From IMG/VR virus record IMGVR_UViG_2751186034_000001, positions 1-64,000 of that record: a stretch of 64,000 nt of DNA. One strand, written 5' to 3'. The stretch is from a virus (taxonomy: Duplodnaviria > Caudoviricetes). Of this stretch, positions 13,318-13,583 are shown one piece after another; within the stretch, counting starts at the first letter, position 1; every line of letters begins with the position of its first letter. A program made the translations under genes and the position numbers. Under the pieces are notes generated by a model. That model made no database searches. It had not been told where the DNA came from and worked only from the letters and a program-made list of their open reading frames with translations.

Positions 13318-13413
13318 ATGAGTAAGAACACGTCCGATCTGTCCTCCCACACCCCGATGATGCAGCAGTATGGGCTTGATCGATGCGCAAGCCACGTTAG
13401 GCGGGGCTTTTAA
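13318..13413 (+). pseudogene. mutS: 5' fragment of mutS interrupted by a prophage
   Basis: [18 protein letters not shown] matches the MutS N-terminus (HTPMMQQY); it diverges after 13370 and stops at 13413; mutS is expected next to this tailocin. Confidence 0.85.
13345..13370. other. Probable att core at the host/prophage junction
   Basis: MutS homology ends at ...GATGATGCAGCAGTA; exact core length needs the other junction; GTCTAAAAC and GCAATAAAAC arm-like motifs follow. Confidence 0.55.
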
Positions 13414-13583
13414 GGTTCCTCTGTCTAAAACCCTAGCGTCATTTTGGAGGCTTTAGGGGCAATAAAACCGGGTTAACGGCAGGCAGTATTAGACAGTGAA
13501 CCCCCCCCCGGCGTCCTGCCGATCTATATCAAATCCCAAGCTTCAAACGGCTGCTAAGCTGGTCACTCAAAAGAGGAAAAAGC

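Follow-up and report, generated by a model that had tools for sequence, protein, structure and literature searches.

A phiAH14a-like prophage integrated within mutS and the rebuilding of the gene at its far junction

The window analysed here is the 64,000-nt stretch formed by bases 1-64000, plus strand, of a 73,245-bp IMG/VR provirus record; the remainder of the record (64,001-73,245) was analysed as L003, whose coordinates equal those of the record minus 64,000. The provirus boundaries of the record do not coincide with attachment (att) sites, and the 73-kb "provirus" is composed of a tailocin cluster, a separate 57.3-kb siphovirus prophage and host mutS at the right end. The tailocin cluster (1 to ~13133, minus strand) lies outside the prophage and includes a PrtR-like repressor gene (12363-13133, minus strand; a 256-aa ORF), which matches Pfam Peptidase_S24 (9.9e-19) and HTH_3/HTH_26 (~1e-9). 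The repressor gene is divergent from mutS and represents the host context of the adjacent tailocin cluster; minus-strand phage-tail genes lie beside it, left of the mutS start. A tailocin/PrtR block beside mutS is known in fluorescens-group Pseudomonas (PMC2647930, PMC3390384), and the minus-strand repressor and tail genes left of 13318 fit this locus. Between the repressor and mutS lies the native prtR-mutS intergenic region (13134-13317, plus strand, 184 bp), that is, the host mutS leader and promoter, whose counterpart in the relative G010 (L037) directly precedes a full-length mutS. Over 1500 nt on each side, the host flanks are 99.1% (left, up to the crossover core) and 97.9% (right) identical to the uninterrupted mutS locus of G010, which establishes the left flank as real host DNA.

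The remnant ORF of the left junction, attL, occupies 13318-13413 (plus strand, 31 codons). Reading from ATG 13318, it contains the first 18 codons of host mutS, continues as GLDRCASHVRRGF through 13 phage codons and ends at a stop codon at 13411-13413; this fusion of a mutS start to phage sequence is as the original prediction described it. In G010 the same 18 codons run on as WRLKNQ, and a mutS start like that of the remnant ORF is seen in further relatives. The 23-nt mutS motif that encodes HTPMMQQY occurs once in the window and in none of 100 shuffles, so the match at the 13318 ORF is not due to chance. The 64-kb window was searched for another copy of the motif and for the body of mutS, and it contains nothing beyond the 31-codon stub; to the right of the remnant ORF, prophage sequence extends to the window end and past it. 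Among ~29 IMG/VR proviruses, the host-derived part of the remnant is conserved and the phage-derived tail is variable, often with early in-frame stops. The tail was also considered as a conserved peptide, an idea that was rejected because tails vary and early stops occur in many attL copies. The 31-codon ORF is a by-product of integration.

The attachment sites were defined through a four-way comparison of attB in G010, attL in the window, attR in L003 and attP in the Pseudomonas phage phiAH14a. A 14-bp identity stretch, ATGATGCAGCAGTA, is perfect in all four sites and constitutes the crossover core. Its attL copy (13357-13370, plus strand) spans mutS codons M13, M14, Q15 and Q16 plus the first two bases of Y17, and it thereby lies inside the conserved HTPMMQQ(Y) coding motif of mutS. 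Host arms have G immediately before the core and C then TGGCGC after it; phage arms have A before it and T then GGGCT after it. The crossover falls within codons 13-18, and the number of stranded mutS codons is 18 rather than the 17 first proposed; the proposal that the first codons are cut off from the rest of the gene is supported. The attR copy of the core lies at record 70693-70706 (plus strand; L003 6693-6706), which gives a core-to-core distance of 57,336 bp. The prophage sits inside the mutS coding sequence, where its integration puts 57 kb between the native mutS promoter and first codons and the rest of the gene.

The far junction carries a run of genes co-oriented with mutS: a methyltransferase gene, a DUF4224 gene (record 69339-69614, plus strand; L003 5339-5614) and, directly downstream of the latter, a gene for a 329-aa tyrosine integrase (int; record 69625-70614, plus strand; L003 5625-6614; PF00589, 1.5e-14). 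The integrase signature TGQR...HDLR...GH...RY, of the RHRY type, is readable in the translation. A 51-bp spacer separates the end of the integrase gene from a phage-supplied mutS ATG at record 70666 (plus strand; L003 6666). From this ATG a complete frame of 859 aa runs to the last base of the record (70666-73245, plus strand), with the phage giving the ATG and the next 13 codons, joined in frame to the remaining mutS. Thus both the duplicated core and the replacement mutS start envisaged in the original prediction are present at the other prophage end (record 70,693-70,706; ATG 70666). Pfam MutS_I (1-112) and MutS_V (1-188) match one ~860-aa frame at record 70,687-73,050, free of stops, and both GDFYE and the Walker A motif (GPNMGGKST) are found in the rebuilt MutS. 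Its N-terminal tail is 4 residues shorter than the native one, with all conserved residues retained. Of 504 codons compared between the mutS of the lysogen and that of an empty-site relative, 29 differ synonymously and 2 non-synonymously. The related lysogen genomes G002, G132 and G154 each have a single MutS_I gene, which is the rebuilt copy beside the integrase; the record being a provirus excerpt, this single-copy check was made in related lysogens rather than in the rest of its own host genome. The host mutS in this record should not be annotated as truncated. The DUF4224 gene directly 5' of int is a candidate that probably encodes the excisionase, or recombination directionality factor; the paper describing phiAH14a stated that it had identified no such gene there (PMC4936722).

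Between the two cores lies the body of a lambdoid prophage (13371-64000, and on to record 70,692; 57.3 kb). Phages phiAH14a and PseuP_222 have counterparts of its tail, head and terminase modules, and matches of the tape measure, J, portal, capsid, terminase and CI-like proteins extend to phiAH14a, PseuP_222 and Medea1. The int/att module is 83% identical in DNA to phiAH14a (KU708004), and the structural module is 86.6% identical to it, with 48% of 25 kb covered. Mosaicism marks the early region; there and in the immunity region, the sequence is largely unrelated to phiAH14a. With a PF00589 integrase, a small directionality-factor candidate and lambda-like modules, the element has the features of a lambdoid temperate siphovirus. 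phiAH14a is a mitomycin-C-inducible prophage whose genome was obtained from induced virion DNA (Dziewit lab, PLoS One 2016, PMC4936722), and its virions were reported to be tailless and non-plaquing (PMC4936722); infectivity of the phiAH14a-like family is not established by phiAH14a itself. That paper makes no mention of mutS or of an attachment site (PMC4936722), and the attP assignment was made here; the PseuP_222/224 papers make no mention of mutS.

The attP of phiAH14a reads, in order, the int stop, GTATTAGACAG, AAATAGACAGG, ATG ACC GAC CTC TCC AGC CAC ACC CCA, ATGATGCAGCAGTA and TGGGCTGGAG. Just upstream of the core, the phage thus carries a mimic of the mutS start, an ATG followed by T-D-L-S-S-H-T-P codons. 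Five of the seven D-L-S-S-H-T-P codons differ between phage and host, and all five differences are synonymous (GAT/GAC, CTG/CTT, TCC/TCA, TCC/AGC, CCG/CCA). Where integrase identity drops to 59-75%, the N-termini that the elements supply are variable ahead of the motif (MTDLSS, MDLSS, MSDLSA, MSSISD, MDVSA, MESLSS) and always run in frame into HTPMMQQYW. This pattern indicates purifying selection on the protein sequence of the phage mimic, from which we argue that the phage gains from a working MutS. By its sequence, the phage protects mutS rather than breaking it, through a selected copy of the MutS start and a core placed in a near-invariant motif.

Flanking the cores are short repeats that are candidates for integrase arm-type sites. 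The 8-nt sequence WWTAGACR occurs five times in the 64-kb window, counting both strands, and two of these copies lie within 130 bp of the attL core, in the phage arm: one inverted (13422-13429, minus strand) and one direct (GTATTAGACAG, 13488-13495, plus strand). Two more copies are found between the int stop and the supplied mutS ATG (L003 6616-6623 and 6638-6645). The attP of phiAH14a has four copies with the same layout and spacing (L004 2517, 2539, 2659 and 2725), and the distance from the inverted copy at 13422-13429 to the core equals that in the phiAH14a attP. The prophage and phiAH14a therefore share an attP layout of mutS-start mimic, 14-bp core and four TAGACA repeats. Across the IMG/VR attL set GTCTAAAAC is conserved, and the direct repeat is conserved in loci with integrases only 59-75% identical. 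We infer from these conserved positions that the WWTAGACR repeats are candidate arm-type sites of the integrase.

The arrangement recurs. A sample of 401 Pseudomonas species genomes yielded 12 with the integrase, and mutS lay within 1.5 kb of it in 11/12. Integrase homologues (59-97% identity) were also found at 12 genome_contigs loci, 11 of which have an intact mutS start directly downstream of the integrase gene; these 12 loci include P. lactis, P. fungipugnans, P. parakoreensis, P. kitaguniensis, P. oryzihabitans, P. songnenensis and Stutzerimonas. Overall, 22 of the 24 homologous loci show the integrase next to mutS. In IMG/VR, 33 contigs have a phage-type junction, among them ~29 attL sites with the host mutS leader and one attP, and in G002 both junctions are found 42 kb apart on one contig. 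The near-invariant mutS motif would serve as a dependable landing site across many Pseudomonas species.

We put at roughly 0.9 the probability that the window holds the attL of a complete, phiAH14a-like 57.3-kb lambdoid prophage that rebuilds mutS at attR. In this reading, the tyrosine integrase recombined phage attP with the 14-bp core in the HTPMMQQY motif of host mutS, stranding the host promoter and the first 18 codons at attL as the by-product ORF. At attR, 57 kb from there, the phage-borne start is fused in frame to the remaining mutS. The lysogen therefore encodes a full 859-aa MutS with a phage-supplied start, and it would transcribe the gene from phage-supplied DNA, by read-through from int or from a weak promoter. 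As mismatch-repair genes set the mutation rate, any element inside one is a candidate evolvability switch, and three other readings of the locus as such a switch were weighed.

Of these, the one that survives best places the switch at the level of expression. It takes the coding sequence as intact and proposes that the exchange of promoter and leader changes the amount or timing of MutS, so that integration and excision would toggle the mutation rate without breaking mutS; variants of it predict lower MutS in lysogens (a mild mutator) or an early-left transcript running through int on SOS induction. The native upstream region is indeed 57 kb off, and the 51-bp phage spacer is unlike it. The genes upstream of mutS are co-oriented with it, and a consensus scan between int and mutS predicts neither a promoter nor a terminator. 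The possibility was also raised by Chu et al. for P. putida F1, E. coli 536 and B. multivorans CF2 (PMC5296598).

Promoter scanning offers little guidance here. A sigma-70 scan of the native leader (13134-13317) returned no plus-strand promoter, and a relaxed scan covering 16 attR and 9 native upstream regions found no consistent promoter in either set. The relaxed scan did return a weak candidate, CCGACA-18-TAGTAT (or TCGGCA-18-TATTAT), in 4/16 attR loci, and its -10 overlaps the int stop codon and the first arm repeat. These scans find almost no promoter upstream of intact mutS in the 9 relatives and are therefore uninformative for this gene. Neither the native nor the phage-supplied mutS start has a recognisable SD sequence, and with no SD or consensus promoter at either start, nothing predicts a difference between the two states. 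Purifying selection on the mimic further argues that the phage profits from a working MutS, and the 29 synonymous to 2 non-synonymous differences in the mutS of the lysogen likewise speak against the switch. We consider an expression-level switch possible but rather unlikely. An expression-level effect of the promoter swap is nevertheless the sole remaining route to a mutation-rate switch at the mutS locus, and one that we regard as improbable. The original prediction had, as its second option, a mutS driven by a phage-supplied promoter and N-terminus at the far junction; the N-terminus is there (ATG and 13 codons), and the promoter is presumptive.

In the preferred reading, in which mutS is rebuilt at attR, transcription in the lysogen presumably comes from phage-supplied DNA, either by int read-through or from a weak promoter at the int stop/arm site. 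Eight of the 24 related loci (L005, L009, L010, L012, L027, L028, L032 and L034) carry ~1 kb extra between int and mutS. Among these, ORFs were examined in L005 only (P. lactis), where a zeta-toxin-family P-loop gene of 264 aa (L005 5179-5973, minus strand; PF06414, 4e-35) faces int in convergent orientation and is transcribed away from the rebuilt mutS. A minus-strand gene in this position makes simple co-transcription with int unlikely in L005, and it weakens int co-transcription as a general rule.

At the other end of the prophage, the host mutS promoter left behind by integration is directed into phage sequence (13414-14606, plus strand), where the plus-strand ORFs at 13584-13793 and 13881-14606 follow the remnant ORF with no predicted terminator before them. 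This could amount to the capture of a host promoter by accessory genes of the phage. A combined proposal, that MutS in the lysogen is made only from phage DNA, by a weak promoter over the integrase arm site or read-through of the early-left operon, so that its level and with it the mutation rate differ from those of a non-lysogen and shift on SOS induction, and that the captured mutS promoter drives the genes at 13584-14606, seems doubtful to us.

Another reading makes the prophage a knock-out mutator resembling SpyCI, in which mutS is inactivated on integration and repair is switched back on by excision. SpyCI at mutL of S. pyogenes blocks the downstream repair gene while integrated and yields a growth-phase-dependent mutator (PMC4129442). 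It is likewise an integrase-bearing, phage-related element at the 5' end of a mismatch-repair gene, but the mutS coding sequence is rebuilt in the present case and gives no sign of lost function, with expression as the level at which a difference might lie. Viewed alone, the 64-kb window agrees with a knock-out, as it holds only the 31-codon mutS stub and no body. The complete in-frame mutS with a phage ATG at record 70,666-73,245 contradicts it, as do the likewise intact mutS genes at 22/24 related integrase loci and the synonymous conservation of the mimic codons. The original prediction had offered a lysogen that is a mutator until excision as its first option; this is at odds with the 859-aa frame at the far junction and with the rebuilt copy being the only mutS in the three related lysogen genomes. 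It had named, as what would speak against it, a far junction that fully restores mutS and leaves expression and mutation rate as they were; the restored gene, one half of this, is present at the junction. We judge a knock-out, which the sequence itself refutes, very improbable.

A switch of the V. splendidus 12B01 type, documented for a mutS-borne element whose integrated state is functional and whose excision leaves a 2-bp scar (a deletion) that frameshifts mutS to give hypermutators (PMC5296598), is just as improbable, because the 14-bp cores of attL and attR match perfectly and are in register, the predicted excision product is the in-frame empty site of G010, and Chu et al. saw excision without a scar in all three of P. 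putida F1, E. coli 536 and B. multivorans CF2 (PMC5296598). The original prediction took this Vibrio precedent the wrong way round, since there it is the integrated element that keeps mutS functional and excision that creates the hypermutator (PMC5296598). Joining the left host flank, the core and the right host flank reproduces exactly the in-frame empty site of G010, and with the cores in register excision is predicted to be scarless; unlike in V. splendidus 12B01, no 2-bp scar is expected. We infer that excision would return mutS to its own promoter. The virion-derived attP of phiAH14a and the empty sites in close relatives are indirect signs that the prophage may excise as a circle and restore attB.

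Elements that rebuild mutS were published in 2017, and this prophage is a new example of them, not a knock-out mutator switch. Chu et al. (mBio 8:e02045-16, PMC5296598) described mobile elements that occupy the HTPMMQQ motif of mutS across hundreds of Beta- and Gammaproteobacteria; each leaves an orphaned host start on one side and provides a start and upstream region of its own on the other (PMC5296598). Their search used relatedness to the integrase of V. splendidus 12B01 as its criterion. Among the Pseudomonas hosts in Table S2 are the fluorescens-group strains P. fluorescens WH6, P. synxantha BG33R and P. chlororaphis O6, and also P. psychrotolerans L19, P. stutzeri strains and P. putida F1 (PMC5296598), and scarless excision was shown in P. 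putida F1 (PMC5296598). As far as sequence can test them, the defining features of this class all appear in the present prophage: insertion at the 5' end of mutS, within the HTPMMQQ(Y) motif, a stranded mutS start of host origin that matches close relatives, a newly supplied translation start and upstream region (with presumed promoter activity) that keep mutS in frame, and an integrase gene adjoining mutS. It differs in that the crossover core lies after MMQQ-Y, the paper noting that the precise location varies, and in that this prophage and its host are not individually described there. Our literature search for an explicit Pseudomonas phage attB in mutS found the subject covered only by Chu et al. 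2017. New here are the four-way att set, the phiAH14a attP, the candidate arm sites and a second, unrelated integrase at the same motif.

The locus also resembles "Prophage 1" of the mutS/cinA region in the P. fluorescens group (Mavrodi 2009, PMC2647930; Loper 2012, PMC3390384), with which it shares its neighbourhood of mutS, prtR-like repressor gene and tailocin cluster; some strains of that group also have a large siphovirus-type block there, of up to 72 kb. Those papers treat the mutS-cinA region as one mosaic prophage, whereas the siphovirus here is separate, with its own att sites inside mutS, and the tailocin cluster and prtR lie outside it.

Integrases of other types are also found at this motif. 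In G007, a second element of ~40.6 kb occupies the same mutS motif (L103/L104; G007:C4:663500-669500 and 704500-708500). It encodes an Arm-DNA-bind_2 plus PF00589 integrase unrelated to the phiAH14a type, has the core CACACCCCGAT and leaves its own mutS orphan. It also supplies a mutS N-terminus and an upstream stretch ~75% identical to the native mutS leader, as if the element had captured a host 5' region. In E. coli 536, a strain listed by Chu et al. (L102, NC_008253 2,848,976-2,849,725), the neighbour of mutS is a P4-type integrase fragment of 248 aa, in which only the arm-binding and central domains were matched and no catalytic domain match was found; BLASTP detects no similarity between this fragment and the integrase studied here. 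Excision was detected in E. coli 536 by Chu et al. (PMC5296598), and another recombinase may act there in trans. At least two, and probably three, unrelated tyrosine-integrase lineages use the mutS motif: the phiAH14a, Arm-DNA-bind_2 and P4 types. A single integrase family behind all mutS elements is unsupported, given the P4 type in E. coli 536, the Arm-DNA-bind_2 type in G007 and the distant homologues elsewhere. Integrase homologues of ~33% identity in 9 other gammaproteobacterial genomes (two of them unpublished, G570 and G737) are in no case next to mutS. Relatives of this integrase at 33-40% identity target other sites; that of Bordetella phage PHB09, for instance, uses a 14-bp core in a pilin gene (PMC7010805).

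Two IMG/VR contigs, L069 (~1268) and L071 (~695), carry the core and the phage right arm on left flanks that are neither mutS nor int. In L069 the left flank of the core is the end of a 224-aa ORF, and in L071 host-like genes follow, including one for a chemotaxis receptor. These junctions may be secondary-site insertions or remnants.
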